From: Candidatus Methanophagaceae archaeon
Lineage (GTDB): Archaea > Halobacteriota > Syntropharchaeia > Alkanophagales > Methanospirareceae
Assembly: GCA_003194435.1 (NCBI GenBank)
Contig: PQXC01000006.1
Location: 3,981-67,980 of the forward strand
Reading direction: 5' to 3'
DNA: 64,000 bases
The notes beneath the pieces are model-generated. The model saw only the letters and a list, made by a program, of their open reading frames with translations, was not told the DNA's origin and ran no database searches. Of this stretch, positions 5,376-64,000 are shown one piece after another. Each line of letters begins with the position of its first letter. The first letter of the stretch is position 1. Position numbers and translations under genes: made by a program.

Positions 5376-5376
5376 T

Positions 5377-40034: not shown

Positions 40035-41480
40035 TCACCCATTTTTATTTTTGCGTTTCCTCTTATCCCTCTCTAACAGCACATACCCCACCAGTGCGAG
40101 CAAGCCAGAGGCGAACAGGATGAGCGTTGACAGTTCGGGAATTGGATAGCCGGGGTCAGTAGAAGGGCTTTCGATATAAGAGTCGCTGCCGGCTTCGGCT
40201 TTATAGTATATCTGGAGTTCATCCGTTGGGCAATCCCATGATAATCTAACAGCGAGCCAATCGCCAGTACTGAAATCCTGTGTTGTTGATACGTTGTCTT
40301 CACAGGTTATGTCCCATAGATGTTTAGTTTCCGCTGCTGTTAACTGCTCGGTGTGGCTGGCAATAACGGTTACATCTCCGGTGCCTTTTTCCAGCCTGCA
40401 AATCTCAACCGTGAGGTTGTGCCCTATTTCATCATCTTCTATCGCTTCTGTCCGAATATGCGCTTTCCACGGGTTATCGCCAAATCCGAGTCCGCATTCC
40501 GCTCCGGTATCCGCATAGAACCATGCCACTCCGGTATAACTCAGGTTGAAATATTCGCCTGTGCCGCTTCCTGAACCTTTGTGCATCAGGTTGTCCTTCG
40601 CGTGCGTCTTACTATCGTTCGCGTTTGGTGCATCATCGGGTTTAGCTTCAGGGGTAAGATACCATGTCTGCTGCTTTGGAACCGGAAGCGTAATGTTGGA
40701 ATCGAATCTCCCGCCTTCGTTGACCTCTTCTGATGATACCTTGAACTCAACAATCTTTGACTGACTTCCATCCGGACTTCTGACATCGAGCTGCAGTGTC
40801 TCGCCTGTAACTATATCAATGCCATGTCTAAGCACGAGCTGGTAGTAGTTAGAAGTGGGTGAAGTCTCAGCCTGCCATTCCTCGCTCGTGTTCAGGTTTG
40901 TTATGTTAACTCTGGGATTATTGCATTCACTGCCGTTTTCGTAAGAAACATATCCATATACGAGGAACGGACTTGAGGGCTGTATAATTTCTACACTTCC
41001 ATTCTTTACGTTGGCAGGGATAGGATAACCATCAGGGTCGCTTAAAATGACGCCCTCCAGGTCGCTAAGGTGAAGCCCACTGAGTCCACGTTCAGCAATC
41101 GCTTGAAATGTAATTGTTGTAAGCACACCTGAAGTGTTCACGCCGCTCGTTGTTTTCTTCCGTGATTCAGCATACTCGACCTTGCCAAGGGTATTATTTA
41201 TTTCGTCTATCAATAGATATGTCTCAGCACCATCCTGACTGAGAAATGTGCCTTGGGTAAGTCCAGTTGCGTTCAACAGCGTATTATTAAAATACAGCGT
41301 GTAGCTGGCACCAAATACTTCACTTCCTTCCGGATAAACTGTAATATTAACTGTGAATATCTCCCCTGATGCGACTTTTTGACATGAAGGCTCAACGCTT
41401 ATCGTCGCAGCAGAAGCAGTCTGAGAAATAGCCAGAATTACCACCATTATTATCATTATCGCTGCAATTGTATATTTCAT
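40035..41480 (-). CDS. Secreted cohesin-domain surface protein with NITNLNTSE..NYYQ module and C-terminal TM/basic anchor
   Basis: Signal peptide. Cohesin domain FTVNITVYPEGSEVFGASYTLYFNNTLLNATGL.... C-terminal LILFASGLLALVGYVLLERDKRKRK. Confidence 0.8.
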   Translation of the reverse strand: MKYTIAAIMIIMVVILAISQTASAATISVEPSCQKVASGEIFTVNITVYPEGSEVFGASYTLYFNNTLLNATGLTQGTFLSQDGAETYLLIDEINNTLGKVEYAESRKKTTSGVNTSGVLTTITFQAIAERGLSGLHLSDLEGVILSDPDGYPIPANVKNGSVEIIQPSSPFLVYGYVSYENGSECNNPRVNITNLNTSEEWQAETSPTSNYYQLVLRHGIDIVTGETLQLDVRSPDGSQSKIVEFKVSSEEVNEGGRFDSNITLPVPKQQTWYLTPEAKPDDAPNANDSKTHAKDNLMHKGSGSGTGEYFNLSYTGVAWFYADTGAECGLGFGDNPWKAHIRTEAIEDDEIGHNLTVEICRLEKGTGDVTVIASHTEQLTAAETKHLWDITCEDNVSTTQDFSTGDWLAVRLSWDCPTDELQIYYKAEAGSDSYIESPSTDPGYPIPELSTLILFASGLLALVGYVLLERDKRKRKNKNG

Positions 41481-41543
41481 CTTTTATTTTGCCACCTCCT
41501 GAATTTCTTACTTATAGCACTTCTCATCGGCGATTTTTCAGTT

Positions 41544-42821
41544 TCATTCCTCTTCCCTCCACAACTTTATTGCAGGTATCCAGCCTGTGTATTCTTTCCC
41601 GTTCGCATCTGTGAACTCGTCACATATTATTTTACCGCCTGTTGCGTTGTATTCCCCGGGATGATGGATAATCTGCGGATACGAGCCTGTGCGAATGGTG
41701 TAGTTGTATTCTTTACATGGTTCAAGCGTGAAACTTGTGTTGAACGTAAGGTTATGCCAGTCGTCTGAATATCCACTCCAGTTTGCGTGTGCATCCACGC
41801 CGTTGCCCCATATCCTCGCATATTCAGTGTGCCCGCCAGTGCCAGGGCATGCATAAGTGTATATCCTGTTCACTTCTATCTCATGGGCAGGTATTATTGT
41901 TCCGTTATGCACGCCCATTATGCTTGGATACGGGCTATCTGGCGCACCGGTGTCAAAGATACCAAGTTTTGCTTCAAGTGTGATATTGAAGTTGAAGAGC
42001 CCGCCGTTGTTGATATCATTTTGGGTTACCATGTAGTTTGTAATATTTGACAGTTTTCCATCCGGGCTTGTAACGTTGAACTGCAATATCTCGCCTGCAA
42101 CTATGTCAGTGCAAGGTGTAAGCACGAGCTGATAGTAGTTATAATCAGGATGTGTCTCAGCTTTCCATTCCTTGCTTGTGTTCAGACTTGTGTTCAGGTT
42201 AGTTATGTTAACCTTTGGATTATTGCATTCGGTGTCATTTCTGTAATAAACATATCCAAATATCAAGAATGAGCTGGATGGCTGTGCGATTTCTACGCTT
42301 CCATTGCTAACATTGGTCAAGATAGGATAACCATCAGGGTCGCTTAAGATGACGCCCTCCAGGTCGCTAAGGTGAAGCCCACTGAGTCCACGTTCAGCAA
42401 TCGCTTGAAATGTAATTGTTGTAAGCACACCTGAAGTGTTCACGCCGCTCGTTGTTTTCTTCCGTGATTCAGCATACTCGACCTTGCCAAGGGTATTATT
42501 TATTTCGTCTACCCATAGATATGTCTCAGCACCATCCTGACTGAGAAATGTGCCTTGGGTAAGTCCAGTTGCGTTCAACAGCGTATTATTAAAATACAGC
42601 GTGTAGCTGGCACCATATACTTCACTTCCTTCCGGATAAACTGTAATATTAACTGTAAATATCTCCCCAGATGCGACTTTTTGACATGAAGGCTCAACAC
42701 TCACTACTGGACTTGCCTGTGATTCAATCGCTGTTGGCACGGCAAAGCCAATTTGTGCAAATATAAATATAAATAAAGCTATAATGCCAGTTCCAATTGC
42801 GGTGGTCAAAACTCTTTTCAT
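41544..42821 (-). CDS. Secreted cohesin-domain protein (paralogue, 110-aa stretch identical to 55025..55813)
   Basis: Signal peptide plus cohesin domain. C-terminal beta-rich domain. Confidence 0.8.
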   Translation of the reverse strand: MKRVLTTAIGTGIIALFIFIFAQIGFAVPTAIESQASPVVSVEPSCQKVASGEIFTVNITVYPEGSEVYGASYTLYFNNTLLNATGLTQGTFLSQDGAETYLWVDEINNTLGKVEYAESRKKTTSGVNTSGVLTTITFQAIAERGLSGLHLSDLEGVILSDPDGYPILTNVSNGSVEIAQPSSSFLIFGYVYYRNDTECNNPKVNITNLNTSLNTSKEWKAETHPDYNYYQLVLTPCTDIVAGEILQFNVTSPDGKLSNITNYMVTQNDINNGGLFNFNITLEAKLGIFDTGAPDSPYPSIMGVHNGTIIPAHEIEVNRIYTYACPGTGGHTEYARIWGNGVDAHANWSGYSDDWHNLTFNTSFTLEPCKEYNYTIRTGSYPQIIHHPGEYNATGGKIICDEFTDANGKEYTGWIPAIKLWREEE

Positions 42822-42839
42822 TTTTTATTTTTTTACCCC

Positions 42840-43697
42840 CTATTTTTCTTTTTTAAATATCAAATACGACGCTATCACGAACAATCCCGCTGTTACAAAC
42901 ACAGCCTCAAATCCCGGTATTTCCTGTCCCTTATTCTCTTTTTCCCCTGACATAGGCAATGAAACGATTGAAGCCGGCGACGACGTGGCTATGGTTGGAG
43001 TTGGATATGGTGATGGATATGGTGATGGTGAGGGAACAGAGTTTATAGTGGATGTCTGCATTGGTGTAGAATCCGGTGTCTCCGTAGGTGAGGATATAGA
43101 TGCAGGCGTTGATGTTGGTGTTGACGTTACAGATGCGTCTCCACTGTTGCTATCCCCACTTTCCGAAGTTGGTGTTGGCGTAGACGTGGGCGTATGAGTA
43201 GGTGTTGGTGTAGTTCCTATATTGCATGTTCCATCACCGATTAAAACGCCTGCGATCTCAAAACCGTAAGGGTCGCTTAATATTACTTCACTCAAATTTA
43301 GACTGCTCGTTCCGGGTTTCGTTGCATTAAAGGTAATGGTTGCAAGCACACCGGGGTTAGTCACTCCACCGCTACCTATTCTGTATTCGCTGAAATTGAC
43401 CTTGCCGTTGGAATTATCAATCTCATTTACCATCACATTGCCTCCGAGAAAGGGTCCTTGGTTTTGACTCAGCGCCTGTAATAAACTATTATCAAAGAAT
43501 AAGGTGTATTGAGCACCGAATATCTCCTCGCCTTCAGGATATATGGTTATGTTCACTGTGAACTTCTCCCCGGGTGAAACTTGTAGATATGGCGGTTCAA
43601 CACTTATTTTTGGTCCTGGCATTCCAAGGCTCGTTTGTATGAGTGAAGAGACAAATAGGGGAGCAATGGCAATCGCTGCGACCATAGCTTTGTTCAT
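42840..43697 (-). CDS. Cohesin-domain protein with Thr/Pro-rich linker and PGF-CTERM archaeosortase sorting signal
   Basis: Cohesin FTVNITIYPEGEEIFGAQYTLFFDNSLL. TPTPTHTPTSTPTPT linker. IPGFEAVFVTAGLFVIASYLIFKKEK. Confidence 0.8.
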   Translation of the reverse strand: MNKAMVAAIAIAPLFVSSLIQTSLGMPGPKISVEPPYLQVSPGEKFTVNITIYPEGEEIFGAQYTLFFDNSLLQALSQNQGPFLGGNVMVNEIDNSNGKVNFSEYRIGSGGVTNPGVLATITFNATKPGTSSLNLSEVILSDPYGFEIAGVLIGDGTCNIGTTPTPTHTPTSTPTPTSESGDSNSGDASVTSTPTSTPASISSPTETPDSTPMQTSTINSVPSPSPYPSPYPTPTIATSSPASIVSLPMSGEKENKGQEIPGFEAVFVTAGLFVIASYLIFKKEK

Positions 43698-43703: not shown

Positions 43704-44720
43704 TCATCTCCTCCTTTTTCTTTTTATGATAAAATATGACATTGCAAGCAAGCCAATTGTTGCTGTGATAGCTCCAAATCCTGATGTAGGTGAAGCTGCT
43801 GGTGAAGCAGCAGGGGTGAGAGAAGGTGGAGGTGACAATGCAGGAGGTGAAGGGGTTACTGTTATTGGAGGTGTGGGTGTGAGCAATGAGGTTACGGGGA
43901 AGTAAATCTTCCATTCTTCTATACCACCAAGCATATTATAAACATGTTCAAAACCATGCTGGACAAGTATTTCGCTTGCTGTTCTGCTTCTGCTACCGGT
44001 TTTACAATAAACAATGATTTTTTTAGATTTGTCCAATTCGCCAATTCTGTTTCCCAATTCAGGTAAAGGTATAAGTTTAGCTTCAGGTATATGCTCACTA
44101 TCGTATTCCTTTTTCGTTCTGACATCCAGCAAAATGATTTCTTCCGGCTCTTCTTCCAACATCTCGTGTGCTTTTTCAACTGTGATATCAATAACAGCGG
44201 GCTCACCTGTAACTCCTCCTACGGTACATGTTCCACCGCCAATTTCACTCTCAAAAACTTTCCCATTTATGTCGCTTAATATCACATCGCCCAATGTTAA
44301 ATCGCTCGTTCCGGAGGTTCCAATTACCTCAAAGCTAATAGATGCTAATACACCAGAGTCTGATATGCCTCTCTCAGCAGTTCGTGTCTCGCCATATTCG
44401 ATCTTGCCAATTGTATTGTTTATTTTGTTTATCACTTCGATTGCATTCGTGCCATCCTGACTTAGAAAAGTCCCCTTGGTTTGCGATGTTGCATTGAGCA
44501 AATTGGGGTCGAAATATAAATCATATTGAGCGGCATATATCTCCTCTCCTTTTGGGTCCACCACGATTTCGATTGTGAATGTCTCCCCCTGCGATACCTC
44601 AACACTTGCTGGCGACACGCTTATACTTGGTCCGGGTGCGGCTTGCACCAGCGAGCTAAACGCCAGATTTAGTAGCACAAAAAATACCAAACCCATACAT
44701 ATTGCCCTTCTTATTTCCAT
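43704..44720 (-). CDS. Cohesin domain - rhodanese (sulfurtransferase) domain - Pro/Thr linker - PGF-CTERM-like anchor fusion protein
   Basis: Cohesin FTIEIVVDPKGEEIYAAQYDLYFDPNLL. Rhodanese with active-site loop VYCKTGSRS. C-terminal SGFGAITATIGLLAMSYFIIKRKRRR. Confidence 0.8.
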   Translation of the reverse strand: MEIRRAICMGLVFFVLLNLAFSSLVQAAPGPSISVSPASVEVSQGETFTIEIVVDPKGEEIYAAQYDLYFDPNLLNATSQTKGTFLSQDGTNAIEVINKINNTIGKIEYGETRTAERGISDSGVLASISFEVIGTSGTSDLTLGDVILSDINGKVFESEIGGGTCTVGGVTGEPAVIDITVEKAHEMLEEEPEEIILLDVRTKKEYDSEHIPEAKLIPLPELGNRIGELDKSKKIIVYCKTGSRSRTASEILVQHGFEHVYNMLGGIEEWKIYFPVTSLLTPTPPITVTPSPPALSPPPSLTPAASPAASPTSGFGAITATIGLLAMSYFIIKRKRRR

Positions 44721-44919
44721 TTTTTATCACTTTTTCATTTTTTATATTTTTATCTATTTAAAAGCTTTTCGATTTTTTTCTTTATTGTTGTTAGGATTAT
44801 GAAAGAATAACCCTATATATAGCTATAAGGAAAAGGGGAGGGGAAGAGTGGGGGGAGTATATCGGTCGGTGGACGCCCGCTAAAAATAGTGCATGAATGT
44901 TCAGCGATTCCCCTTTTAA

Positions 44920-45144
44920 CTTTTTATTTTATTCTCTGCTTTCGGTTTAGCATATCCATCGGATTTCGGGAGCAAGGTGATAGGGCTCATATTTGGACTC
45001 CCGGCTCTTTTCCTCGTGAATGCTTTCCGGCTTTTCTTCCTTTCTCTTATCCTTCTTTATTATCCCGGGATTTTTGATTATGCGCATACATATCTGTGGC
45101 AGACGGTCATCTTGATAATGATATTTGTGGCATGTCTGGTGTAG
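44920..45144 (+). pseudogene. Exosortase/archaeosortase-like fragment (NxxR motif region) without start codon
   Basis: Frame +1 reads ...GLIFGLPALFLVNAFRLFFLSLILLYYPGIFDYAHTYLWQTVILIMIFVACLV, resembling the conserved aNgxR...H transmembrane core of exosortases. Neighbouring frames (44889..45077, 45236..45652) are also hydrophobic. Confidence 0.3.
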
Positions 45145-45235
45145 TTGGAATTTGTAGTGAAGGTGAGGGTGAAGGATACGGCTTCTTCCTTTTTTCTCCG
45201 TTTCATGGCTATTTCTGAACTATGATTATAGCTTA

Positions 45236-45652
45236 TTGATTGCGAAGGTCGCGGAACCAATCGTGAATATGGTGCTTCCGGAATCAAGTTTAGCAAATTT
45301 AAAAGAGATGAGATACACTGGTGTAGAAGTGATAATAACACCGGAATTGATGACCGCTACTTTCAATTTCGTTCCTTTTATCGGGCTTATTTTCGCAACG
45401 AGAGCAATTAGTTTTAAGAATAAGATGAAGGCTATGGGAATAGGTTTGCCTATAATAGTAATTGCACATATCTTTTTCCTTGTGTATAAATCTCTTACGG
45501 ATCCGAACCTTGGAGTCCCTTATGCTTTTAAAGCCATGCTCACAGTGCAATTGATAGGACAATATTTCCTCCCTTTTGGCATCTGGCTTGCATTTGCATG
45601 TAGTGGGGATAGAGGAGCATGTGAGGAAGAAGCATGGGAAGAAAGGCGTTGA
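45236..45652 (+). CDS. Hydrophobic hypothetical protein (possibly the C-terminal part of the degraded archaeosortase-like gene)
   Basis: ORF with three predicted TM segments. Confidence 0.3.
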   Translation: MIAKVAEPIVNMVLPESSLANLKEMRYTGVEVIITPELMTATFNFVPFIGLIFATRAISFKNKMKAMGIGLPIIVIAHIFFLVYKSLTDPNLGVPYAFKAMLTVQLIGQYFLPFGIWLAFACSGDRGACEEEAWEERR

Positions 45653-45881
45653 AGAAGGAAGAAGTTAAGGCAGTGTTAGAGTTGGAGGCGGAGAAAGCCG
45701 ATTTCGTCTCTATGATGTTAGAGAAATTGCATTTAGGTAAGGTTATGGAGCGGATAAGGAATGTGCTTAAGAGAATAAAAGAGAAGGAAAAGTAAAGGAG
45801 ATGCGACTCCTGAGTCTCTAAATTCTTCAGTTCAAGTTCAAAGAGAAGTTTTTATATGCGCATTGCCAATATTATTCACGA

Positions 45882-46244
45882 GTGGTAGAAATGGAACATT
45901 CGTGGATAGAAGTTGAAATATCAGACCTTGAGAGGAAGAAATCCGCAAAGCTAAACGCATTGGTTGATACTGGAGCGAGCTTGGCAGTTTTGCCAGAAAA
46001 AATAGCTGAGGAGCTTGGGATAGAACCTATAAGCGAGGAGAAAGTTTCGACAGGAGCAGGAGAGATAAAGGTAAAGAGGGGTAGAGCCTGGATAAAGCTG
46101 AAGGGGAAGGAAGATGCCTTTCCCATCTGGATTTCGGGTTTTATAGACAAGGTTTTGCTTGGAGTGGTTGTTTTAGAATCCTTTGGCTTTGATGTAGATC
46201 CTGCAACCGGAACATTGAAGGAAAGACCACTGCTTTTATATTGA
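45882..46244 (+). CDS. Retropepsin-like (clan AA) aspartic protease
   Basis: ALVDTGASLAVLP matches the D-T/S-G-A catalytic motif and hydrophobic flanks of the retropepsin fold. 120 aa. Confidence 0.6.
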   Translation: MVEMEHSWIEVEISDLERKKSAKLNALVDTGASLAVLPEKIAEELGIEPISEEKVSTGAGEIKVKRGRAWIKLKGKEDAFPIWISGFIDKVLLGVVVLESFGFDVDPATGTLKERPLLLY

Positions 46245-46489
46245 CGGATAGATTGACTTGCATCTCGCTCTTGGATTAGTTAGTTTGGCGATTGCTAAAA
46301 GGCTTCTTGAGAAGTGATTCGAGTTTACAGAATTTTCTAAAGAAGAGTTCATACGGGTTTTTTTCCTTCATTAAGAAAGAACTCGAGCTAATTCCTCTTG
46401 AAACCTAAGAGAAAAAAAGGAATTTTTTAAAGTTTACTATTTTCCACTTTTCCCTATTGCCTATTGCCTATTGCCCATTTCGCTTATTT

Positions 46490-47494
46490 TTACCATGCAA
46501 TATTCCCCCAATTTGCTCCTATTATCACTGCATCAAGTATGTTCACGATACAATCATTGTTAAGGTCTCCCCTGTCAGCCCTGTCTTGTCCTTCCCAGCA
46601 GAAATTACCGCACGTGCATTTTTCGCCCCATTCACGCCCTACTATTACTGCATCAAGGATATTCACCCTGCCGTCCCCGGTTGCGTCTCCCGCAATATAG
46701 ACGTTAACTTGTATAATAGCCGTGTTTGCGAGACCACCATCATCCTTTACTGTTAAACTGACATTAAATGGTTCGTAGCCTGTTCCATTCCATTTACAGC
46801 TCGAATAAGCATGCTCTATCGCCGGACCTTCGCCAGAATGTGTGTCTCCGAAGTCCCATGTATAGCTTGTGATGGCATCGCCATCCGGGTCATAAGAAGC
46901 GGAAGCGTTAAAGATGGTTTGGCATGGATAATAGGAGCCAACGTTATTGTAGCGGTGCGCAGAGAATGCGATTGCAACAGGGGGGAAGTTTATAAATGCA
47001 GTGCCATTATCTACTGCCGCCGGTATGGTAGTTTCATCAGGACCAGCTTCCTTCAGCACATTGATGCTTAGGTTCAATGCACTTGTCTCTCCATGATTGC
47101 CAACCGCTTTTAATGTGATGTCTGCGAATTTGACATCGCCGTATAATCCATCGCCAAAATCTGCCCCCACTGCTTTGACACTACCTGTCGAATTGTCAAT
47201 AACTGCATCAAATAAATCGAAATCGCTGTTCGCTGCCGATACCACATGAACCACAGATGGGTCGAAAGCGAGGCTTATATCGGCAGCACCCAAATATGAT
47301 ACATTGTTGATCATGATACTCGTGACTGCAGTTTCGTCAGGCTTCATAAAGGCATCGCTTATTGATACAGTAGTTTCAGAAGCAGAAGCTGAAGCTGAAG
47401 CAGACAGAGTGAGGAATGAGACAAAGAGCAGAAATAGTGCAGTATACAACACTGCTACTCCCGGTCTTTTCTTCTTCCACATATCGTTCTTCAT
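46490..47494 (-). CDS. Secreted protein: cohesin-like N-domain + PKD domain + C-terminal double dockerin
   Basis: PKD YDPDGDAITSYTWDFGD. Dockerin repeats GDATGDGRVNILDAVIVGREWG and GDLNNDCIVNILDAVIIGANWG. Start set near MKNDMWKKKRPG (signal peptide). Confidence 0.75.
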   Translation of the reverse strand: MKNDMWKKKRPGVAVLYTALFLLFVSFLTLSASASASASETTVSISDAFMKPDETAVTSIMINNVSYLGAADISLAFDPSVVHVVSAANSDFDLFDAVIDNSTGSVKAVGADFGDGLYGDVKFADITLKAVGNHGETSALNLSINVLKEAGPDETTIPAAVDNGTAFINFPPVAIAFSAHRYNNVGSYYPCQTIFNASASYDPDGDAITSYTWDFGDTHSGEGPAIEHAYSSCKWNGTGYEPFNVSLTVKDDGGLANTAIIQVNVYIAGDATGDGRVNILDAVIVGREWGEKCTCGNFCWEGQDRADRGDLNNDCIVNILDAVIIGANWGNIAW

Positions 47495-47516
47495 TCTTAT
47501 TTTCACCTCCTTCCAT

Positions 47517-55052: not shown

Positions 55053-55813
55053 CCCGGAGCCCCAACTATGTAAGCACGAAGTGTTACGTAATCCATAGAA
55101 TCTATTTTTGTATTGCAGTCAACGTCCGCTGCCCATTCACTGGTTATTGTCCAACCCGGAGCTCCAACTACGTAAGCACGAAGTGTTACGTAATCCATAG
55201 AGTCTACTTTTCCATTTCCATCTACATCACCGCACATACCTATTCTCACGCTTCCATTGCTAACATTGGTCAAGATAGGATAACCATCAGGGTCGCTTAA
55301 GATGACGCCCTCCAGGTCGCTAAGGTGAAGCCCACTGAGTCCACGTTCAGCAATCGCTTGAAATGTAATTGTTGTAAGCACACCTGAAGTGTTCACGCCG
55401 CTCGTTGTTTTCTTCCGTGATTCAGCATACTCGACCTTGCCAAGGGTATTATTTATTTCGTCTACCCATAGATATGTCTCAGCACCATCCTGACTGAGAA
55501 ATGTGCCTTGGGTAAGTCCAGTTGCGTTCAACAGCGTATTATTAAAATACAGCGTGTAGCTGGCACCATATACTTCACTTCCTTCCGGATAGACGATAAT
55601 ATCAACGGTAAAATTCTCACCCGGGGGAACCTCTAAATACGCTGGTTCAACACTTATCTGCGCTGCCAATGCCGACTGCGCAAAGACACACAATGTCAAT
55701 GCTATCGCAGCAATAATTAAGCCTGTTCCTGTTCTTACTCCTGCTCCTTCTACACTACGCGTACAATTTTCCACTCCTTTTTTTCTTCTTTCTTCTTCCT
55801 TTTTTTCTTTCAT
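55025..55813 (-). CDS. Secreted cohesin-domain protein with C-terminal Cys-terminated double dockerin-like module (…GWGLNCCCG)
   Basis: Cohesin identical over 110 aa to 41544..42821. GDVDGNGKVDSMDYVTLRAYVVGAPGW repeated twice. Confidence 0.75.
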   Translation of the reverse strand: MKEKKEEERRKKGVENCTRSVEGAGVRTGTGLIIAAIALTLCVFAQSALAAQISVEPAYLEVPPGENFTVDIIVYPEGSEVYGASYTLYFNNTLLNATGLTQGTFLSQDGAETYLWVDEINNTLGKVEYAESRKKTTSGVNTSGVLTTITFQAIAERGLSGLHLSDLEGVILSDPDGYPILTNVSNGSVRIGMCGDVDGNGKVDSMDYVTLRAYVVGAPGWTITSEWAADVDCNTKIDSMDYVTLRAYIVGAPGWGLNCCCG

Positions 55814-56412: not shown

Positions 56413-56494
56413 CCCCGAAAAAAGAAAAAAGGGGGAAAAAATTTTTTATTTTTGTTTCTTTATTCCCTATTGGCTATTGCCTATTCACTAATCG
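56413..56494 (-). terminator. Conserved 3' element downstream of a dockerin gene
   Basis: ccccgaaaaaagaaaaaagggggaaaaaatttttt. Same family as 49590-49659, 60680-60772 and 61930-61993. Confidence 0.35.
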
Positions 56495-59400
56495 CTACCA
56501 GGCGACGTGTCCCCAGTTCGCACCGATGATTACCGCATCCAGGATGTTTATCACGCAATCGTTGTTCAGGTCCGCTCCATCCTGCTGCTCACGGTCTCCA
56601 GTCCAGTAATAACAACATCGTCCAGGTTCTGGATATCCTGGGTCATCACACCTCTTGCCCCAGTGTTTTCCTACCCATACTGCATCGAGGATGTTCACCC
56701 TGCCATCTCCATTCGCATCTCCTGCGATGTAAACAGTTACATCCAGGAAGCTCGAGTTGGTCTCCTCCGGGCATCCGTCGTCTGTCAGTGTTAAGGTGGC
56801 ATTGAATGGCACGTAGTGTCCACCTTCATTATATGGAACGCCCCATGGCTCCCACTGCCATGACTCATACTTATGCTCTTTCTGGCAGCCCTCGCATTCT
56901 GCTCCTGTGCAGTTCTCAATAAACTCGCCTTCGCTCGTTCCGTATTGACCGTCACCGAAGTCCCATCTGACATAAGAGATATTGCCGCCTTTGCCCTCAT
57001 CCGGGTCATAAGACTTGCAAGCGCATAGTTTTGTAATGCACGGATATTTCTTTGCCACGTTGTTCACACGATGCTTTGAGGTTGGAATTGGAACTGGTGG
57101 TCTGTTGTCATTTATCTTGACTGTGCCATCTTCGACACAGACATTGCATACCTCTTGCTTATCTTCGTCAACAATGATTATGTCAAGATCAAGCAGGTCT
57201 AACGGACTTACTGCGCCACGTGCACCGATTGCGGTAAACTGAATGGTTGCGACTGTGCCTTCTCCTTTTACACCGCCATCAACCTTTCTCGTCTCAGCAT
57301 AAGAAACTTTGCCGTTCGCCTGGTCTATGTCGTTTATGACCACGATTGTATCGCTGTAATTACCGAGGAAAGGACCTTTGTTCTGCGTCTCCGCTCTTAC
57401 CACGCTCGTGTTATACGTCAAGTAATACTCGACACCATATATTGGCCAGCCGGAAGAAACGTTTATCATTACATCGAACTGGTCCTGAGGCTGGACAATC
57501 GTTGCGTTGGGTTCAACGCTTATCGTCGCAGTGCATTTCGTATCCTTCTCAACAATCAGGATTGCATTGGTCGCCATGAAGCCGTTGCCATAGGGTCTGC
57601 CGTATGCCCAATAGTACGAGTCCCTCTCCTGGAACTCCGCCACCTCTGGATTGCATGGGTCATTCGCCTGTAGTTCACTTGTTACATTCCACGAATCTGT
57701 GCCTATCTCATAATTGGGTGCCGTAGGCCACACTGGTGACTTACTCGCGCCGTTGAAATAAAGGGTTTCTTCTTTGGATTCTGGTGGTTTATACGGTGGT
57801 TCTGGATTTGCGTATAGCGTGGCAGTGAACAGTGTAGCGTTCATTATCTCTTCTGGTGGATTGTCTATACATGGGAATGTTGCAGTCGTGGTTGCATTAT
57901 CAGGGTGGACATAGTACTGCCAGTAGTGACCTCCTGAGTCCTTGTAGTAGAAGGTAGCAAGATAATCAGCTCCTTCATCTATGTAGTATTCGATGTGCGG
58001 CACGCTTGGATCCTCGTACACGATCAGCAGAGCCATTCCAGCAGTTTTTCCTTTTCCCCATGCGTATGGGATAGTCCTATTTGCAGTGTAAACCCCCGCT
58101 CCCGGGTTCACATACTCTGTCACATCGAACGCGAGCATTCCGTTTTGATATTCGTCCATTGTGGTAAATCCTTTCGTATCTGCATAAGAAGCGTCTACCG
58201 AAATTGGATTGCCGTTAAATGTCATCCCAAAGTCAGGTACTGCACCATAGTCCTTCCACTTGTACCAATCGTAGTACACGTACAGCCTTGCCAGCTTTAT
58301 AGTTGCAGTATCCGGAATGTTTGCCGTAGTATTGGTAATCCTGTTGAGGTCTCCTGGAAGAGTAAAGTGCACTGTGTCGTTGCCGCGTTTGTAGTCTCCT
58401 GTTGTGTAGATGAGACTTCTGTTGCATGCACCTTTTATCACTGTATCCATTGGGTGCTGTCCTTGATACCCGTAGCATGTATGCGGCAGCATATCGTCAA
58501 CTATGCAATCTCCTGTTGTGTTCCTAGTCTCATTCCTCATGTTGTTAGTCTCGTCCATCTCGTCAATGTCATCATCACAGTCTGCGGTTGCAGTCAGTGT
58601 GACGTTCTCTAACACCGTAGGATGCCACCAACCCATTCTCACCTCTACTTCTTCGCCTTTTGCTATTGGGAGACTGGTTGTATTCTTTGCGATAAAGCCA
58701 CCGCCACCCGTTATACTTAAGCTCGTATTACCCGTAAAACCATCGTTTTGACCTACGTTCTTTACCCAGACGGTCATCATGTTATGCTTGGATTCAAATA
58801 CATACCTGGGGTCTATTCGAGTCACTATCAAGTCCGGAGCACCCACAATTACAGATGCTTCGTCTTCATCAGAAACCACGACTCCCGTTTCCTCGCATAT
58901 CCCCGTTGCATTCTGAACATTGCAATCCCTGCCAGTATCTACGATTGTGGCATTGAATATGAGGGTTATAGTGTTGCATGGCGGAAGAGGACCTGCGAAG
59001 TTCCATCTGACACTTCTGTTGTCGGGGCTTACATAATTCGGAGCAGGACCTGCTACCATTCCACTGAAGTTCAAGCCTGTCATGTTGTCCCAGATAACGA
59101 GATTAGTAAGGTTGCAGCATTTTACATGGACTGTTGTCTTAAAGGTCACGTTGGTGCCTATTTCAGTTATATCTTTGCTAATCTCTTTTACCCATGCCCC
59201 TGTTTCGTTCTTCACATACTTGGTAACTTCAATGGGGTTGCCGCAGGTGAACGTTCCGTTGTCTACTCCAAATGGTACTGGACCACTGACATTATACAGA
59301 CTCATTGTTCCTACATCGAAGAGCAGGTTGCTTACGCAGCAGCCATCGGTGTCGCAGCAGTGAACTGTGAAGTCGCCGAGATGGTAAACACCCGCTGGTT

Positions 59401-59791
59401 GGTTAGTGGGAACAGGTGGAGAACCTGACCAATGAGCGAATATGACTGTCAACCGCCCCGGAGTCTGCGCAACGGGAGCCCACGATTGGTCCTCAAAGTG
59501 TGTAAGGTCTGGTGTGTAACTGGTTATATTCGCACAGCAATGGGTATATGTAATGTTTACAACACCATTCTGTATGGGAACATCAGATTTAACCCACACC
59601 CCTACAGTTGTCGTGTTGCAGTAGTCTGGCACAGTGCTATTGTCCGGCTCCAGGTAATATATGGCATCTTTTCCTGTAGGCACTGGAGGCTGTGCAATTG
59701 AGGCAGGTGCAATCATTGCAAAGATGGAACCGAGCATTATCGCTGCCATCGCCATTCCCATCGCTATCTTACCGCTTTTCTTATTTTCCAT
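56495..59791 (-). CDS. Large secreted surface protein: N-terminal beta-rich region + CARDB-like + cohesin + PKD-like + C-terminal double dockerin
   Basis: Start set at the ATG preceded by AGGAGGTGA (MENKKSGKIAMGMAMAAIMLG signal). Cohesin FDVMINVSSGWPIYGVEYYLTYNTSVV. Dockerin GDANGDGRVNILDAVWVGKHWG...ADLNNDCVINILDAVIIGANWGHVAW. Confidence 0.8.
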   Translation of the reverse strand: MENKKSGKIAMGMAMAAIMLGSIFAMIAPASIAQPPVPTGKDAIYYLEPDNSTVPDYCNTTTVGVWVKSDVPIQNGVVNITYTHCCANITSYTPDLTHFEDQSWAPVAQTPGRLTVIFAHWSGSPPVPTNQPAGVYHLGDFTVHCCDTDGCCVSNLLFDVGTMSLYNVSGPVPFGVDNGTFTCGNPIEVTKYVKNETGAWVKEISKDITEIGTNVTFKTTVHVKCCNLTNLVIWDNMTGLNFSGMVAGPAPNYVSPDNRSVRWNFAGPLPPCNTITLIFNATIVDTGRDCNVQNATGICEETGVVVSDEDEASVIVGAPDLIVTRIDPRYVFESKHNMMTVWVKNVGQNDGFTGNTSLSITGGGGFIAKNTTSLPIAKGEEVEVRMGWWHPTVLENVTLTATADCDDDIDEMDETNNMRNETRNTTGDCIVDDMLPHTCYGYQGQHPMDTVIKGACNRSLIYTTGDYKRGNDTVHFTLPGDLNRITNTTANIPDTATIKLARLYVYYDWYKWKDYGAVPDFGMTFNGNPISVDASYADTKGFTTMDEYQNGMLAFDVTEYVNPGAGVYTANRTIPYAWGKGKTAGMALLIVYEDPSVPHIEYYIDEGADYLATFYYKDSGGHYWQYYVHPDNATTTATFPCIDNPPEEIMNATLFTATLYANPEPPYKPPESKEETLYFNGASKSPVWPTAPNYEIGTDSWNVTSELQANDPCNPEVAEFQERDSYYWAYGRPYGNGFMATNAILIVEKDTKCTATISVEPNATIVQPQDQFDVMINVSSGWPIYGVEYYLTYNTSVVRAETQNKGPFLGNYSDTIVVINDIDQANGKVSYAETRKVDGGVKGEGTVATIQFTAIGARGAVSPLDLLDLDIIIVDEDKQEVCNVCVEDGTVKINDNRPPVPIPTSKHRVNNVAKKYPCITKLCACKSYDPDEGKGGNISYVRWDFGDGQYGTSEGEFIENCTGAECEGCQKEHKYESWQWEPWGVPYNEGGHYVPFNATLTLTDDGCPEETNSSFLDVTVYIAGDANGDGRVNILDAVWVGKHWGKRCDDPGYPEPGRCCYYWTGDREQQDGADLNNDCVINILDAVIIGANWGHVAW

Positions 59792-60033
59792 TTTTTCTTT
59801 TTCACCTCCTAAGGGGTTATTTATATAGCGCCCCTCCTTGCGCTTTCTTTTTTCTTTCAGCCCCCTCATGGATTTGCACCATGTCAAACGCTTTGCAAGG
59901 GGGCATCCATTTTCTCTCATTTCCTCTCCCGCTTTTCATTTTCTTTTCCCATTTCCTACTTTCTCTGTTCTTCCACTTTCATCTTCTAAAAAGAAATAGG
60001 CAGCTTTGCGCTGCCTGACATTATTTTTCATTA

Positions 60034-60627
60034 TTAGCAACAGTTCAGTGTCCAACCCGGAGCTCCGACTATGTAAGCACGAAGTGTTACGTAATCCATA
60101 GAATCTATTTTTCCATTGCAGTCAACGTCTGCCGCCCATTCACTGGTTATTGTCCAACCTGGTGCCCCAACCACGTAAGCACGAAGTGTTACGTAATCCA
60201 TAGAATCTACTTTTTCATTGCCATCTACATCACCGCATATCCCTACTTGTGGAACGGGTATCGTAAGATTCTGCTCGAACAACCCGCCGTCGGTCATGTT
60301 CTGTGATGTGACCGTAATCGTGCGGTTAGTTGAATTGCCATTATCGCTTGCACTGAAGTACAGCACATCGCCCTCGCTAACGTCACACGACGAAGTTATA
60401 ACCTGATAGTAGTTAGAAGATGCATTCGTCTCCACCGTATAATTCTCACTGGTGTTGAGGTTCGTTATGTTCACATTCGGACCGAGCACTGCGGTTCCAT
60501 TGCTGTATTTCACCCAGCCGTATGCATGGAACGGAGTTGGCGGTTCTGTCGCTGTTGCTACCATCGCTGTTGCTGTGAACATCACTAAAACAGCCAGTAC
60601 CAAAATTATGCTTTTTACCTTTCCCAT
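60034..60627 (-). CDS. Small secreted protein: NITNLNTSE/NYYQ module + Cys-terminated double dockerin-like module (…GWTLNCC)
   Basis: Signal peptide. NVNITNLNTSENYTVETNASSNYYQV. C-terminal 190 bp near-identical to the 3' end of 55025..55813. Confidence 0.7.
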   Translation of the reverse strand: MGKVKSIILVLAVLVMFTATAMVATATEPPTPFHAYGWVKYSNGTAVLGPNVNITNLNTSENYTVETNASSNYYQVITSSCDVSEGDVLYFSASDNGNSTNRTITVTSQNMTDGGLFEQNLTIPVPQVGICGDVDGNEKVDSMDYVTLRAYVVGAPGWTITSEWAADVDCNGKIDSMDYVTLRAYIVGAPGWTLNCC

Positions 60628-60772: not shown

Positions 60773-61786
60773 TTAGCAGCTCGCGGTCAGCGTTTCAGCG
60801 CTCTTCATGCTTATGAAGTAGCCCTCGCCTCGCTCCATCGTATCGAAGTCATTAAACCCATTTGGCGCAACAGGGTTATAGACCTCAAATTTCTGTGCGG
60901 TGGCGTTCCACCTCGCGACATACCAGTAGTCGCCAGCAATTGAAGGCAACGCATCGTCTATCGGCTTGGAGCAGTTCAGCCAGCCTATCATGTTCAAGCC
61001 CGGCTCCAGCGAAACGTTCATCTGCTTGTATGCCATGCCGGTGTATGTCCACGTGTCAGCGGATGTCATGTGGATAAAGTATCCAACGCCGTTCTCCATC
61101 GTATCTGAGGAACTCAGTGGTACGAAGTTGTGTGCGGAAGCATCGTATTTGTAGAGTGCATCGTATGAGCCGCTCAATGATGCATCTATTATGTTCGCTA
61201 CCGTCATGTCAGTATCGTTGGTCAAAGGCAGTGAAATCAGGTTCCAGCCCTCAACGAGGTCTTTGGTGAATGTCTCTGGTGTTGGGCACGGGCAATTGAA
61301 GGTGCCGTCTATCCACACTTGATTTGGAACGCTATTCCCATATTCGTCATACAATTTTGCTGCTGGAAAGTCGGCGTGGTTTAATGCGCCCGTTCCAGGA
61401 CCGATTGCCTCCAGTGTGACGTTGGCAAGGATCAAGTGTCCAGTGTGATCGTGGAAATCAGGACTGTCACCGCCGAATCTTATGAAATTTTCCTCGTAGT
61501 AAGGTATGACCATCCAATAACTGGTATAAAAACCGGGTTGGACATCGGTTATATTAACTACATTTGGATCGAAGTATAGGTCATCCTGAAAACCCTCAAC
61601 ACCATCGGTCGCATTAACCCACATTGTCACCGTGATTGTCTCGCCGGGTGCTGCGCAGCTGGGGTCCGGATCGAAGTACACCACATTGTCTGCCGTCGCA
61701 GATGTCGTAAGCACTACTAATACTGCCAGCGCTATTCCTATTCCGAATGCTATTCTTCCCGTTTTGTTCATTTTTTTCTTTTTCAC
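60773..61786 (-). CDS. Secreted protein with N-terminal cohesin-like domain and C-terminal unknown beta-rich domain
   Basis: Signal peptide. ITVTMWVNATDGVEGFQDDLYFDPNVVNITDV is a cohesin-like pattern. Confidence 0.65.
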   Translation of the reverse strand: MKKKKMNKTGRIAFGIGIALAVLVVLTTSATADNVVYFDPDPSCAAPGETITVTMWVNATDGVEGFQDDLYFDPNVVNITDVQPGFYTSYWMVIPYYEENFIRFGGDSPDFHDHTGHLILANVTLEAIGPGTGALNHADFPAAKLYDEYGNSVPNQVWIDGTFNCPCPTPETFTKDLVEGWNLISLPLTNDTDMTVANIIDASLSGSYDALYKYDASAHNFVPLSSSDTMENGVGYFIHMTSADTWTYTGMAYKQMNVSLEPGLNMIGWLNCSKPIDDALPSIAGDYWYVARWNATAQKFEVYNPVAPNGFNDFDTMERGEGYFISMKSAETLTASC

Positions 61787-61929: not shown

Positions 61930-61993
61930 GCCCCCGAAAAATAAAAAGGGCAAAAACCCAAATTTTTTATTTTGTTCTCGTTCAAGGTTGTTG
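61930..61993 (-). terminator. Conserved 3' element downstream of a dockerin-like gene
   Basis: cccccgaaaaataaaaagggcaaaaacccaaatttttt. Confidence 0.3.
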
Positions 61994-64000
61994 TTAACAA
62001 TCTTTGCAACAGTTCAGCGGGTATCCAAAGCCCCAATGATTTCTTATCGCCGATGCATCTGCCCTGTCCACAAAGCCATCACAGTAATTCACATCTGCTG
62101 CCCACAGGTTGCAAATTGCGTATCCAAAGCCCCAATGGTTTCTTACCGCCGCGGCATCTCCTCTATCAACAGAGCCATCACGATTCACATCCCCACATAG
62201 CCGCCACTGCACGACCAGCGGATAGTTGTCTGCTGCCCCCGCTCCACCATCAAGTGCATAAGGAGCATCCGCAATCCCATCACCGTTTGAATCGGGTGCC
62301 GTCCACTTATCCCAGTAGTTGCCCGTGTAGTTCGTGTAGGTTCCACCGTTGTAGCAGTAACTAACTTGCGTGGAAGTGCTCCAGTGGTTGGTCCCGCGGT
62401 TGTCGTATGCCTGCACTCCACCGCCGTTATTGTTTGTAAGGTCATTCCAGTACACATAGTTCCCTGAACTGTTATACAGCTTTATCCCGTAGTTGCCGTT
62501 GTTCTCTATCGTGTTGTTGTATATCACGCTGTCGTTACCATACACGTACACGCCATATATCATATTGTTCCGGGCGAGATTACCCTTTACGGTGCAGTTG
62601 AAGCCTATCAGCTCGATGCCGTATCTGTTATTATATAACGTATTGCACGTCACGTTGATGAATTTCGTCTCTTCAGGGAAGTCTACTTTTCCCACTTCTA
62701 TACCGTATGAGGTTATTGGACGTTCTGTATGGTTACTTATGGTGTTGTTCGTTATATCAATGTGCGTTGATTTTACTACGCTTATCCCTATATCTGAGTT
62801 GTTATATACCGCGCTATTCGTGACCTTTCCGTTAGTGACGTTTTCCATGCATATACCGCTGAAGTAATCGATAAATTTACTATCGTTGTAGCCACAGTGA
62901 TGAACTGTGCACTTGTTGATCACGAAAGGAACAGTTGTGTTCTCTATGGTGATGCCAGCACCTCCACAGTTCGTTATCGTCAGGTCTTCTATGTAGTAAG
63001 TATCGCCCACTTTCGTGGCAAGACCCTCGTTTTCGAGATCGTTAAAGTCGCTGTTGCTCCTCACCACAATCACATACCCCACTTGATGGAACTCTGATTT
63101 TGCATTGCTCTCATCTGACTCACCCACGTTGTCGTCGCAGTCTGCAACCACGGTGAAGTTGTGGCAATCCTCCCCAAGGTTCACATTCGTAAAGCTCACG
63201 GTTGTGCTTTTACCTGCGTCCAGTGGTCCAACACCTGTCACTTTATCATGGAAGCTACCGTCAATCCATAAACTCACATTGAACGCCACTCCTGTCCCTG
63301 CATTGCCCTGATTGAGAATCGTTGCATTTACCGTGAAGTTCTGGTGTGGTCTCGGTGTTTCTGGCTGGAACTCGATGTCAGAGACCACAAGGTCAGGATT
63401 TCCTCCCGAGACTTCTTCTGCAAGCATCGCAGCCCATACGAAGAAACCCTCATAACCACCTCCACACCCACTACAATCATTCCACCAGGTCAAGTTTTGC
63501 GACATGCCACTGTTTATGTTACTTACGGATTTTTGCCACACATCGAACCAGCCATCAGCACAGCCATCAAAAACTTTCGCACCATTGAAGAATAACTTCG
63601 CATACTCGTGGTGGGACTGAGCAGCCCATACAGTGTGGTTCGCGTTCGTATTTATAGAACCATTGAACCAGGTGGTATACGAGGCAACACAATCCTCCTC
63701 TTTCCATAAACCCTGGTTCAGCCACCAGCGTCCATTATGTGTCGCAGGTTCGGTAGTATTGTCAACAACGATGTCCACGAACTTCCACATGCAGTCACAG
63801 TTGGTAATACCACTTAACGTGTTGATGCCCGGAGTTGCATTCACCGTCCAATAATTATGGCTGGTTCCGAAACCGCATTCCCAGTGTCCGTAAGTATCAG
63901 TTTGTGTATTCATGGGAATCGTTATTTGCTGCTGCTGACCCTGAGAATTGGTAAAGGTTGCGGAGCTATCTCCGCTCTGCATCCAGCAATGCCAGTGCAC
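61994..64000 (-). CDS. Secreted right-handed parallel beta-helix (NosD/PbH1-like) + CARDB + Cys-rich dockerin-like C-terminus protein, N-terminus beyond window end
   Basis: PbH1 repeats (NNTISNHTE..., YNNRYGIELIG, NNMIYGVYVYGNDSVIYNNTIENNGNYGIKLYNSSGN). CARDB DLVVSDIEFQPETPRPHQNFTVNATILNQG. C-terminal GDVNRDGSVDRGD...NCCKDC. No start within the window. Confidence 0.75.
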   Translation of the reverse strand: MHWHCWMQSGDSSATFTNSQGQQQQITIPMNTQTDTYGHWECGFGTSHNYWTVNATPGINTLSGITNCDCMWKFVDIVVDNTTEPATHNGRWWLNQGLWKEEDCVASYTTWFNGSINTNANHTVWAAQSHHEYAKLFFNGAKVFDGCADGWFDVWQKSVSNINSGMSQNLTWWNDCSGCGGGYEGFFVWAAMLAEEVSGGNPDLVVSDIEFQPETPRPHQNFTVNATILNQGNAGTGVAFNVSLWIDGSFHDKVTGVGPLDAGKSTTVSFTNVNLGEDCHNFTVVADCDDNVGESDESNAKSEFHQVGYVIVVRSNSDFNDLENEGLATKVGDTYYIEDLTITNCGGAGITIENTTVPFVINKCTVHHCGYNDSKFIDYFSGICMENVTNGKVTNSAVYNNSDIGISVVKSTHIDITNNTISNHTERPITSYGIEVGKVDFPEETKFINVTCNTLYNNRYGIELIGFNCTVKGNLARNNMIYGVYVYGNDSVIYNNTIENNGNYGIKLYNSSGNYVYWNDLTNNNGGGVQAYDNRGTNHWSTSTQVSYCYNGGTYTNYTGNYWDKWTAPDSNGDGIADAPYALDGGAGAADNYPLVVQWRLCGDVNRDGSVDRGDAAAVRNHWGFGYAICNLWAADVNYCDGFVDRADASAIRNHWGFGYPLNCCKDC

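Follow-up and report, generated by a model that had tools for sequence, protein, structure and literature searches.

The window analysed here is a 64,000-nucleotide (nt) stretch of contig PQXC01000006.1 from a Candidatus Methanophagaceae archaeon. Its positions 40035-64000 are occupied by 13 minus-strand open reading frames (ORFs) of 146-1643 amino acids (aa), 12 of which encode cohesin and/or dockerin modules. Cohesin-dockerin pairs are specific, very tight protein connectors. It is likely that this cluster encodes a non-cellulolytic cohesin-dockerin assembly, predicted to reside on the cell surface of ANME-1 (Methanophagaceae), one of the lineages of anaerobic methanotrophic archaea (ANME). 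An earlier reading of the same letters, hereafter the first-pass annotation, had described a single-strand row of at least 12 cohesin/dockerin surface-type genes from 40 kb to the window end, and this description was borne out. The genes are listed below with their Pfam scores in bits; TM denotes a transmembrane segment, and the module classes (A to D for cohesins, a to d for dockerins) are described in a later section.

g40035: 40035..41480, minus strand; signal-like N-terminus, class A cohesin (40986-41402; Cohesin 34.7 bits), CarboxypepD_reg-like beta-sandwich, domain without family match, TM and basic tail; full-length orthologue in a related locus (L085, a 76.8-kb ENA contig) 51% identical
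g40035 tail: 40038-40145, minus strand; TM and basic residues, ...IPELSTLILFASGLLALVGYVLLERDKRKRK; candidate membrane anchor
g41544: 41544..42821, minus strand; signal-like N-terminus, class A cohesin (42288-42704; Cohesin 36.2 bits), beta-sandwich, conserved C-terminal domain without known function (orthologues 48-76% identical); no anchor and no dockerin
g42840: 42840..43697, minus strand; signal-like N-terminus, cohesin (43218-43610; Cohesin 47.1 bits), Thr/Pro/Ser linker of about 95 aa, PGF, TM and KKEK tail (42843-42929); candidate anchor
g43704: 43704..44720, minus strand; signal-like N-terminus, cohesin (44220-44627; Cohesin 44.9 bits), rhodanese (43908-44180; Rhodanese 75.6 bits), Pro/Ser/Thr linker, SGF, TM and RKRRR tail (43707-43796); candidate anchor
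g46490: 46490..47578 (probable start 47494), minus strand; signal-like N-terminus, class B cohesin (46991-47371; Cohesin 19.9 bits, below cut-off), PKD (PKD_4 43.7 bits), class a dockerin (46493-46693; Dockerin_1 28.3 bits); orthologues 52-99% identical
g47517: 47517..49532 (671 aa as PXF52797.1; ORF to 49556), minus strand; adaptor with signal-like N-terminus, two cohesins and one dockerin: class A cohesin (49032-49442), CarboxypepD_reg-like sandwich, FN3-like domain (Pur_ac_phosph_N 34.6 bits), class B cohesin (48069-48452), Ig-like region, class c dockerin (47532-47717; Dockerin_1 25.2 bits); Cohesin 47.2 bits (2 stretches)
g49660: 49660..54591 (1643 aa), minus strand; signal-like N-terminus, PQQ-type beta-propeller, Big_9/He_PIG/cadherin-like repeats, class C cohesin (50236-50649), PKD, class a dockerin (49663-49881)
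g54588: 54588..55028 (146 aa from ATG 55028; ORF to 55052), minus strand; N-terminal hydrophobic segment and Ig-like domain; orthologues 59-98% identical
g55025: 55025..55813 (262 aa), minus strand; minimal adaptor with signal-like N-terminus, class A cohesin (55241-55657; Cohesin 35.9 bits) and class b dockerin (55046-55234; Dockerin_1 38.1 bits); 246 homologues at E<=1e-5
g56495: 56495..59920 (1141 aa as PXF52802.1), minus strand; N-terminal region without assignment, CARDB (50.3 bits), DUF3344 (151 bits), class C cohesin (57110-57523), PKD-like region, class a dockerin (56498-56725; Dockerin_1 29.4 bits); an alternative start at 59791 gives a better signal peptide
g60034: 60034..60627 (197 aa), minus strand; signal-like N-terminus, CarboxypepD_reg-like sandwich, class b dockerin (60052-60237; Dockerin_1 41.3 bits), 91.5% aa-identical to that of g55025
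g60773: 60773..61786 (337 aa), minus strand; signal-like N-terminus, divergent class D cohesin (61292-61687), conserved beta-rich C-terminal domain (about 170 aa) without family assignment
g61994: 61994..64000, minus strand; last ORF of the row, its 5' end past the window end; CARDB (56.7 bits), right-handed NosD-like beta-helix (Beta_helix 72 bits, NosD 55.9 bits), class d dockerin (62015-62197; Dockerin_1 34 bits)

Cohesin and dockerin modules

The Pfam scan that the first-pass annotation had suggested as a check supported the Cohesin (PF00963) and Dockerin_1 (PF00404) assignments at the curated cut-offs of 24.1 and 22.9 bits, respectively. Cohesin matched seven genes at or above its cut-off (32.8-47.2 bits), namely g40035, g41544, g42840, g43704, g47517 with two modules, g49660 and g55025. 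Three more cohesins were below the Pfam cut-off or missed, namely those of g46490 (19.9 bits), g60773 (19.3 bits) and g56495 (no match), and were recognized by BLASTP or hhalign. The g46490 module was 49% identical to the second g47517 cohesin by BLASTP, and that of g60773 aligned with a profile of window cohesins at 98% hhalign probability (E 2.5e-13). The g56495 cohesin was linked by BLASTP to other window cohesins, including that of g42840, at E values of 1e-11 to 1e-20; g56495 and g49660 matched each other at 8e-116, with 63% identity, along the stretch formed by cohesin, PKD and dockerin. The total is therefore ten genes with 11 cohesin modules, in place of the seven genes counted before. 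An extra cohesin in the N-terminal 160 aa of mature g56495 was considered and rejected (hhalign E 0.34).

Dockerin_1 matched seven genes at or above its cut-off (25.2-41.3 bits): g46490, g47517, g49660, g55025, g56495, g60034 and g61994. Each of these dockerins is a single module with two Ca-loop/helix repeats, both of which were seen in the alignment for all seven; the second repeat carries a one-residue insertion in g61994 and starts with E in g47517. The eight genes with double dockerins of the first-pass annotation are thus reduced to seven, each with one ordinary dockerin showing the usual internal duplication. Both module types stand on one chain in five genes, since g46490 and g47517 have to be added to the three (g49660, g56495 and g55025) that had been correctly named.

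The g55025 dockerin matched solved dockerins such as 4uyp_B and 1ohz_B in phmmer and profile searches. AlphaFold2 (AF2) models, made from alignments of 78 (g55025) and 76 (g60773) sequences, reached a mean pLDDT (the model's per-residue confidence) of 87 with a pTM (its global fold score) of 0.72 for g55025 and a pLDDT of 90.4 for g60773. Among solved structures, the best matches of both models were cohesins, including the archaeal 2XDH of Archaeoglobus fulgidus (Foldseek E 1e-10 for g55025), and the flattened beta-sandwich (jelly-roll) of about 140 residues that marks cohesins was found. Dockerin helices were placed at residues 205-215 and 239-249 of the g55025 model. The cohesin and dockerin assignments hold by hidden Markov model (HMM), profile-profile comparison and predicted fold.

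The accessory PKD, FN3, CARDB, beta-helix and beta-propeller domains of the first-pass annotation were all found by Pfam, the FN3-like domain as Pur_ac_phosph_N and the propeller as PQQ-type; the rhodanese of g43704 and DUF3344 of g56495 come in addition. A CarboxypepD_reg-like sandwich of about 95 aa recurs in g40035, g41544, g47517 and g60034. Between 50675 and 53108, g49660 carries 9-10 tandem Big_9/He_PIG/cadherin-like units of 273 nt (91 aa), 65-78% identical to one another. At E<=1e-5, 518 sequences belong to the g60773 family, with 47-78% identity; nearly all lack Pfam annotation, and these homologues are an unrecognised cohesin-domain family. The only gene of the row with neither module, g54588, gave weak matches to an S-layer-like model (NF033506, E 7e-7) and to FixG_C (E 0.0065).

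Secretion and anchoring

A hydropathy heuristic indicated, for all 12 complete products, a single hydrophobic segment at the N-terminus, with basic residues before it and an AxA-like site after it. By hydropathy, a C-terminal TM with basic tail is present only in g40035, g42840 and g43704. The g42840 tail, ...EIPGFEAVFVTAGLFVIASYLIFKKEK, follows a T/P/S linker of about 95 aa and shows the tripartite arrangement of literal PGF motif, hydrophobic helix and basic residues; that of g43704, ...SGFGAITATIGLLAMSYFIIKRKRRR, follows a P/S/T linker and has the SGF variant. Among 13 distinct tails of g42840 and g43704 orthologues, ten read PGFE or PGFG and the rest GGFE or SGFE, mostly as LPGFEA followed by a TM and basic residues, and for the g43704 orthologue in L085 a Pfam PGF-CTERM (PF18204) match is on record. 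Because of these orthologues, the tails of g42840 and g43704 are regarded as diverged PGF-type tails, and their processing by a PGF-CTERM/archaeosortase system is plausible from sequence. The IPEL tail of g40035 is kept in the L085 orthologue and fits no curated sorting-signal model. In role, the three predicted anchors would be analogous to anchoring scaffoldins, with a mechanism other than the SLH domains or sortase used there.

Classes of modules and signs of recent exchange between genes

Four classes can be told apart among the cohesins and four among the dockerins, as follows.

Cohesin class A: g40035, g41544, g55025; more distant, g42840, g43704 and the first g47517 module
Cohesin class B: g46490 and the second g47517 module
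Cohesin class C: g49660, g56495
Cohesin class D: g60773
Dockerin class a: g46490, g49660, g56495; long Cys-rich insert; positions 10/11 I-L
Dockerin class b: g55025, g60034; positions 10/11 S-M
Dockerin class c: g47517; positions 10/11 I/L-Y
Dockerin class d: g61994; positions 10/11 R-G/A

Positions 10/11 are the specificity-determining residues in clostridial dockerins. Both repeats of each dockerin are alike at the recognition positions, as in dockerins with dual binding mode. The presence of four cohesin classes and four dockerin classes differing at 10/11 suggests four orthogonal pairings. If a cohesin does not bind the dockerin of its own chain, class A is excluded from b and c, class B from a and c, and class C from a. 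The putative D-d pairing of g60773 and g61994 is independently supported by conserved gene adjacency, and we infer that these always adjacent genes are the best candidate pair.

Some modules appear to have been homogenised between genes of the cluster, as their DNA shows. Cohesin DNA of g55025, g41544 and g40035 is about 94-97.6% identical over about 380 nt (40989-41366, 42291-42668 and 55240-55620), the g41544 and g55025 copies being about 96-97.6% identical, and dockerin DNA of g55025 (55023-55242) and g60034 (60026-60245) is 88-92% identical. In a close strain (L092/L093/L099), g49660, g54588 and g46490 are 92-99% identical to those of the window, and the g55025 orthologue is only 54% identical. 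Near-identical modules together with this divergent orthologue point to recent overwriting by gene conversion in the lineage of the window.

Host and conservation of the locus

The MCM protein of the window is 79-90% identical to those of Methanophagales-type metagenome-assembled genomes (MAGs) and 56% to that of ANME-2, and three cluster products have identical counterparts on an 88.5-kb contig of a Candidatus Methanophagaceae archaeon MAG: PXF52792.1 (C4B56_04470), PXF52797.1 (C4B56_04495) and, at 100% for g56495, PXF52802.1 (C4B56_04520). The host is therefore ANME-1, and the ANME-2 match proposed in the first-pass annotation has to be replaced. The C4B56 genome has been called a thermophilic Ca. 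Methanophagales ANME (PMC10702137). No GTDB representative genome contained an exact 56-mer match, so that this genome is not among the species representatives there, and the exact g60034 protein was not on record. Public locus tags of the row are C4B56_044xx-045xx, all annotated as "hypothetical protein".

Gene order is kept in more than 30 independent loci, including a complete ANME-1c genome. The conserved order, on the same strand, is (g61994-g60773)...g56495-g55025-[g54588-g49660]-g47517-g46490-g43704-g42840/g41544-g40035. Orthologous loci were found in L085, in an NCBI MAG labelled Methanosarcinaceae (L086/L087), in L088 and L089, and in the complete genome of Ca. Methanospirare jalkutatii (L090, ANME-1c), with aa identities of 31-75%, or 31-99% when 27 metagenomic loci are included. 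Among the full-length core genes of the syntenic loci, g47517 is conserved best; scanning metagenomes with it yielded these 27 loci, which contain orthologues 65-94% identical to it. A g46490-like gene follows the g47517-like gene in 21 of the 27, a g43704-like gene comes next in 10, the remaining contigs stopping before that point, and a g55025-like gene lies upstream in 17 of the 27. Among loci showing both g55025- and g47517-like genes, the g54588-g49660 pair is present in seven and absent in ten, indicating that it behaves as an optional cassette. A g61994-like gene lies directly upstream of a g60773-like gene in seven of seven loci (including L086, L089, L090 and L137-L139); the L090 orthologue of g61994, 38% identical, has DUF3344 at its N-terminal start. 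In L137 the pair stands beside a type III-B CRISPR-Cas locus, apart from other cluster genes.

A wider reading, which we put forward tentatively, is that ANME-1 and some related Methanosarcinales-type archaea share a conserved surface-assembly locus, maintained by vertical descent, of which the cluster is one example. Such a locus would encode a closed network with four orthogonal cohesin-dockerin specificities, from which an extracellular sheath or matrix would be built. The locus core would then comprise the DUF3344-cohesin-dockerin protein, the minimal adaptor, the two-cohesin adaptor, the cohesin-PKD-dockerin protein, the cohesin-rhodanese anchor, further cohesin anchors, and a separable beta-helix-dockerin/cohesin-D pair.

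Proposed assembly and alternative explanations

In the proposed assembly, the membrane-anchored cohesins of g40035, g42840 and g43704 would hold dockerin-bearing adaptors in a Ca2+-dependent manner. The adaptors' own cohesins would then recruit more dockerin proteins, leading to a branched, multi-layered coat or matrix. The anchors would probably be processed by a PGF-CTERM-type archaeosortase. Such a coat may serve in adhesion to partner bacteria or kin, in formation of a sheath or matrix, or in display of the rhodanese or other cargo; the other domains of the cluster are adhesin-like or enzyme-like (PKD, Big_9/cadherin-like repeats, CARDB, DUF3344, beta-helix, beta-propeller and rhodanese).

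Several points weigh against this proposal. The heuristic used for signal peptides is not a trained predictor such as SignalP. None of the PGF-CTERM, PEF-CTERM and PEP-CTERM HMMs reached its cut-off on the three C-terminal tails: the g42840 tail scored 13.3 bits on PF18204 (PGF-CTERM) against a cut-off of 18.8, neither this tail nor that of g43704 matched TIGR04126 (PGF-CTERM), and the latter reached 22.3 bits on Heimdall-CTERM against a cut-off of 24. Within the window, the archaeosortase family is represented by a pseudogene only. Hence, of the earlier claim that Thr/Pro linkers and PGF-CTERM anchors indicate attachment via archaeosortase, what stands is three TM tails, two of them with a T/P/S linker and (P/S)GF. 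These tails resemble archaeosortase A substrates in the T/P/S-rich linker, the PGF (or SGF) motif, the hydrophobic helix and the basic C-terminal tail of a secreted protein, and differ from them in missing the HMM cut-offs and in lying in a window without an intact archaeosortase. Such substrates were reportedly described by Haft et al. in 2012 and Abdul Halim et al. in 2013, the Haloferax volcanii S-layer glycoprotein being one example. The largest scaffold, g47517, has only two cohesins, so that scaffoldins are less central to this system than to a cellulosome. The pairing A-a, B-b, C-c and D-d would be one consistent assignment, obtained by logical inference only. Lastly, the closest GTDB representative by MCM (90%; L001, JAODGH010000048.1, 7300-17312) has no cohesin cluster at the equivalent position: it shares MCM and ChsH2 with the window, lacks CbiD downstream and continues into unrelated metabolic genes, indicating that the genomic location of the cluster is not fixed.

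The first-pass annotation had argued that proteins with both partner modules imply self-assembly instead of recruitment. This argument does not hold, as bacterial adaptor scaffoldins likewise combine both modules in a single polypeptide, an arrangement that does not speak against recruitment of cargo. The cluster might accordingly be read as a cargo-display platform, consisting mainly of anchors and adaptors, whose free cohesins would capture enzymes or substrate-binding proteins that bear a dockerin and are encoded elsewhere in the genome; recruitment, and not self-assembly, would then be its main purpose. This explanation overlaps with the assembly preferred here, differs from it in emphasis, and has in our judgement a modest chance of being the better description. 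Display is kept in view because cohesins outnumber dockerins (11 modules against 7), because an anchor (g43704) bears a rhodanese with the active-site loop CKTGSRS (Cys239) intact, and because in L085 a C-terminus homologous to the dockerin end of g60034 sits on a papain-like peptidase (a Peptidase_C1-lectin protein). In published surveys, dockerins are found on NikA/OppA/TroA-type (ABC-transporter) binding proteins in ANME (PMC9012536), and ANME-1 genomes have 112-149 dockerin against 77-80 cohesin domains (PMC5244752). Most dockerin proteins of the cluster, however, carry adhesin-like and not catalytic domains. Moreover, the active-site Cys of the rhodanese is Ser in 5 of 11 g43704 orthologues, including that of Ca. 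Methanospirare, so that catalysis may not be the conserved role of this domain; g43704 itself is predicted to be an extracellular, membrane-anchored rhodanese.

Adhesion between species or kin is unlikely to be the main function. The modules would here engage cohesin/dockerin proteins or surface polymers of sulfate-reducing partners or neighbouring ANME cells, giving partner recognition. Syntrophic sulfate-reducing bacteria (SRB), including the ANME-1 partner HotSeep-1, do encode conserved cohesin/dockerin proteins (PMC10553843), adhesin-type domains are many in the cluster (CARDB, PKD, cadherin-like, DUF3344; PMC9210967), and module turnover is fast, as seen for g55025 against its neighbour genes in the close strain. 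On the other hand, the window holds no partner sequence, the numbers of cohesin and dockerin classes are equal within one locus, which makes internal pairing the simpler explanation, and the Seep-SRB2 that partners ANME-1 has only one moderately expressed fibronectin-domain adhesin (PMC10553843).

We regard it as improbable that the products are simply fast-varying surface proteins, in which cohesin- and dockerin-like domains are generic beta-sandwich and EF-hand spacers without specific pairing, possibly for evasion of surface-targeting viruses. Recent module homogenisation, the optional cassette, toxin-antitoxin insertions at one intergenic site in relatives and a high density of N-glycosylation sequons would fit such proteins. 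Against this stand the strong conservation of order and of whole proteins (g47517 65-94%, g60773 family 47-78%), the Ca-loop residues kept in both repeats of every dockerin, and the retained cohesin fold.

The NosD/beta-helix fold class also occurs in carbohydrate-active proteins. Least probable of all is a true cellulosome or other polysaccharide-degrading complex, for which only the cohesin/dockerin modules, the NosD/beta-helix domain and a sub-stretch Sde0182_C match speak, against a methanotroph host lineage, the lack of a many-cohesin scaffoldin, and the finding of no glycoside hydrolase (GH), polysaccharide lyase (PL), carbohydrate esterase (CE) or carbohydrate-binding module (CBM) family in the 13 cluster products at E<=0.01.

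Gene row and genomic setting

Within the row, the four 3'-most genes are spaced by 6, 18 and 63 nt, and 4-nt overlaps join g55025 to g54588 and g54588 to g49660 (gene calls from the identical public contig L081), suggesting translational coupling of g54588 with both neighbours. By these short gaps and overlaps, the row has an operon-like layout. Plus-strand breaks are only two, the 44721-46489 block and a 72-aa ORF at 55876-56094. The latter encodes a coiled coil and lies in the 681-nt gap (55814-56494) between g56495 and g55025; RHH/ParE-like toxin-antitoxin genes occupy the equivalent gap in the related contigs L083 and L088, so that the gap looks like an insertion hotspot. A 169-aa minus-strand ORF at 55833-56342 was judged probably spurious, being Ser-rich, without family match and antisense to an ORF called as a gene in L081.

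The GC content of the cluster (43-48%) is not unusual within the window. Before 40035, the window encodes CbiD, MCM, thermosome, DnaK/DnaJ, aIF2, and thiamine and cobalamin enzymes, together with an rve-type insertion sequence (IS) and an OLD-family nuclease; no cohesin or dockerin gene was found in this part. The nuclease, of AAA/TOPRIM type (5377-7188), and an XhlA-like small protein (4378-4986) lie in a low-GC stretch (37-43%) at 2000-8000, and the rve-integrase IS element lies at 28068-29003. These three are possible mobile or defence elements unrelated to the cluster.

The plus-strand block (44721..46489) contains the following features.

Archaeosortase/exosortase-family pseudogene: about 44889-45144, plus strand
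Multi-TM ORF of 138 aa: 45236-45652, plus strand; no family
ORF of 53 aa: 45634-45795, plus strand
Clan AA (retropepsin-like) aspartic protease: 45882-46244, plus strand; TIGR03698 57.8 bits against a cut-off of 57.35

The archaeosortase remnant is frameshifted and 5'-truncated, the first 64 or so model positions being absent, with the catalytic-Cys motif HECSAI in one frame and the Arg/His part NAFRL...AHTYLW in the next. Its 55-aa ORF matched TIGR04144 (E 6e-11). Stitched over the frameshift, it scored 47.3 bits on TIGR04178 (cut-off 23) and covered ArtB model positions 65-146 of 156; by sequence, the remnant is closest to archaeosortase B. The 138-aa ORF was considered as a degenerate archaeosortase paralogue and rejected, as it has no similarity to the remnant and no family match. 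The block was not found in any orthologous locus spanning the junction, where a g46490-like gene abuts a g43704-like gene (L085, L100-L104), indicating a lineage-specific insertion outside the conserved core.

Relation to known systems

Expansion of cohesin and dockerin domains in anaerobic methanotrophic archaea, to which the first-pass annotation had referred, is published for both ANME-1 and ANME-2 (PMC5244752, PMC9012536). The largest domain counts reported are those of ANME-1 (PMC5244752 Table 2; PMC9012536). For the first two genome columns of their Table 2, which the text of the paper leads us to take as ANME-1, Timmers et al. (2017) give 80 and 77 cohesin domains together with 149 and 112 dockerin domains, and they suggest a function in cell contact (PMC5244752). 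Chains that combine a dockerin with up to five cohesins are described by Chadwick et al. (2022), whose S4 Data list all such proteins (PMC9012536); in their supplements, whose tables use re-annotated locus tags, the tag 'C4B56' had no match. Murali et al. (2023) report cohesin/dockerin proteins in partner SRB (PMC10553843). The cluster agrees with the two repertoire papers (PMC5244752, PMC9012536) in ANME-1 lineage, module types, CARDB, beta-helix and carbohydrate-binding-like folds, dockerin-plus-cohesin chains and a proposed extracellular or cell-contact role. It differs in that they offer, as far as we read them, per-genome counts and lists, without a syntenic locus, module classes, (P/S)GF anchors, a cohesin-rhodanese anchor or module homogenisation. 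An incomplete literature search turned up no description of the conserved locus, of the module classes or of the cohesin-rhodanese anchor. The expansion in ANME-1 and ANME-2 is thus known already; what is new here is the conserved gene order, the four plus four module classes and the recent homogenisation.

The closest bacterial parallels are cellulosomes with adaptor scaffoldins, as in Acetivibrio cellulolyticus (ScaA/ScaB), Pseudobacteroides cellulosolvens and Ruminococcus flavefaciens (ScaA/B/C/E). Shared features are the cohesin jelly-roll, the two-repeat Ca-binding dockerin, chains with both modules and clustered scaffoldin genes, to which may be added several orthogonal specificities and dedicated cell-surface anchoring proteins, both of which are candidates in the cluster. 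Unlike these cellulosomes, the cluster has no carbohydrate-active enzymes (CAZymes) or CBMs, at most two cohesins per chain and an archaeal methanotroph as host; bacterial cellulosomes are anchored by SLH domains or sortase, whereas anchoring here is predicted to be by C-terminal TM or PGF-type tail. Within the cluster products there is neither a dockerin-bearing CAZyme nor a many-cohesin primary scaffoldin with CBM. The term "cellulosome-like" in the first-pass annotation therefore fits the architecture and does not extend to function, as both glycoside hydrolase and CBM are lacking.

To our knowledge, A. fulgidus has only a few cohesin/dockerin modules and no large multi-gene locus. Its non-cellulosomal cohesin and dockerin (PDB 2XDH) compare with 18 modules in 12 adjacent genes here; the A. 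fulgidus work is that of Bayer 1999 and Haimovitz 2008, as cited in PMC9012536.

Implications of the conserved locus for ANME-1

The conserved locus narrows the candidates for a surface assembly to a small set: 11 cohesins, 7 dockerins and three candidate anchors. ANME-1 archaea, which remain uncultured, consume a large part of the methane that rises through marine sediments. Given orthogonal pairings, the modules would be useful as thermostable building blocks for synthetic protein scaffolds; without such pairings, the cluster would be a further example of the catalogued domain expansion. Should the wider reading of the locus hold, it would represent a defined archaeal counterpart of the cellulosome scaffold, structural or syntrophic instead of degradative.

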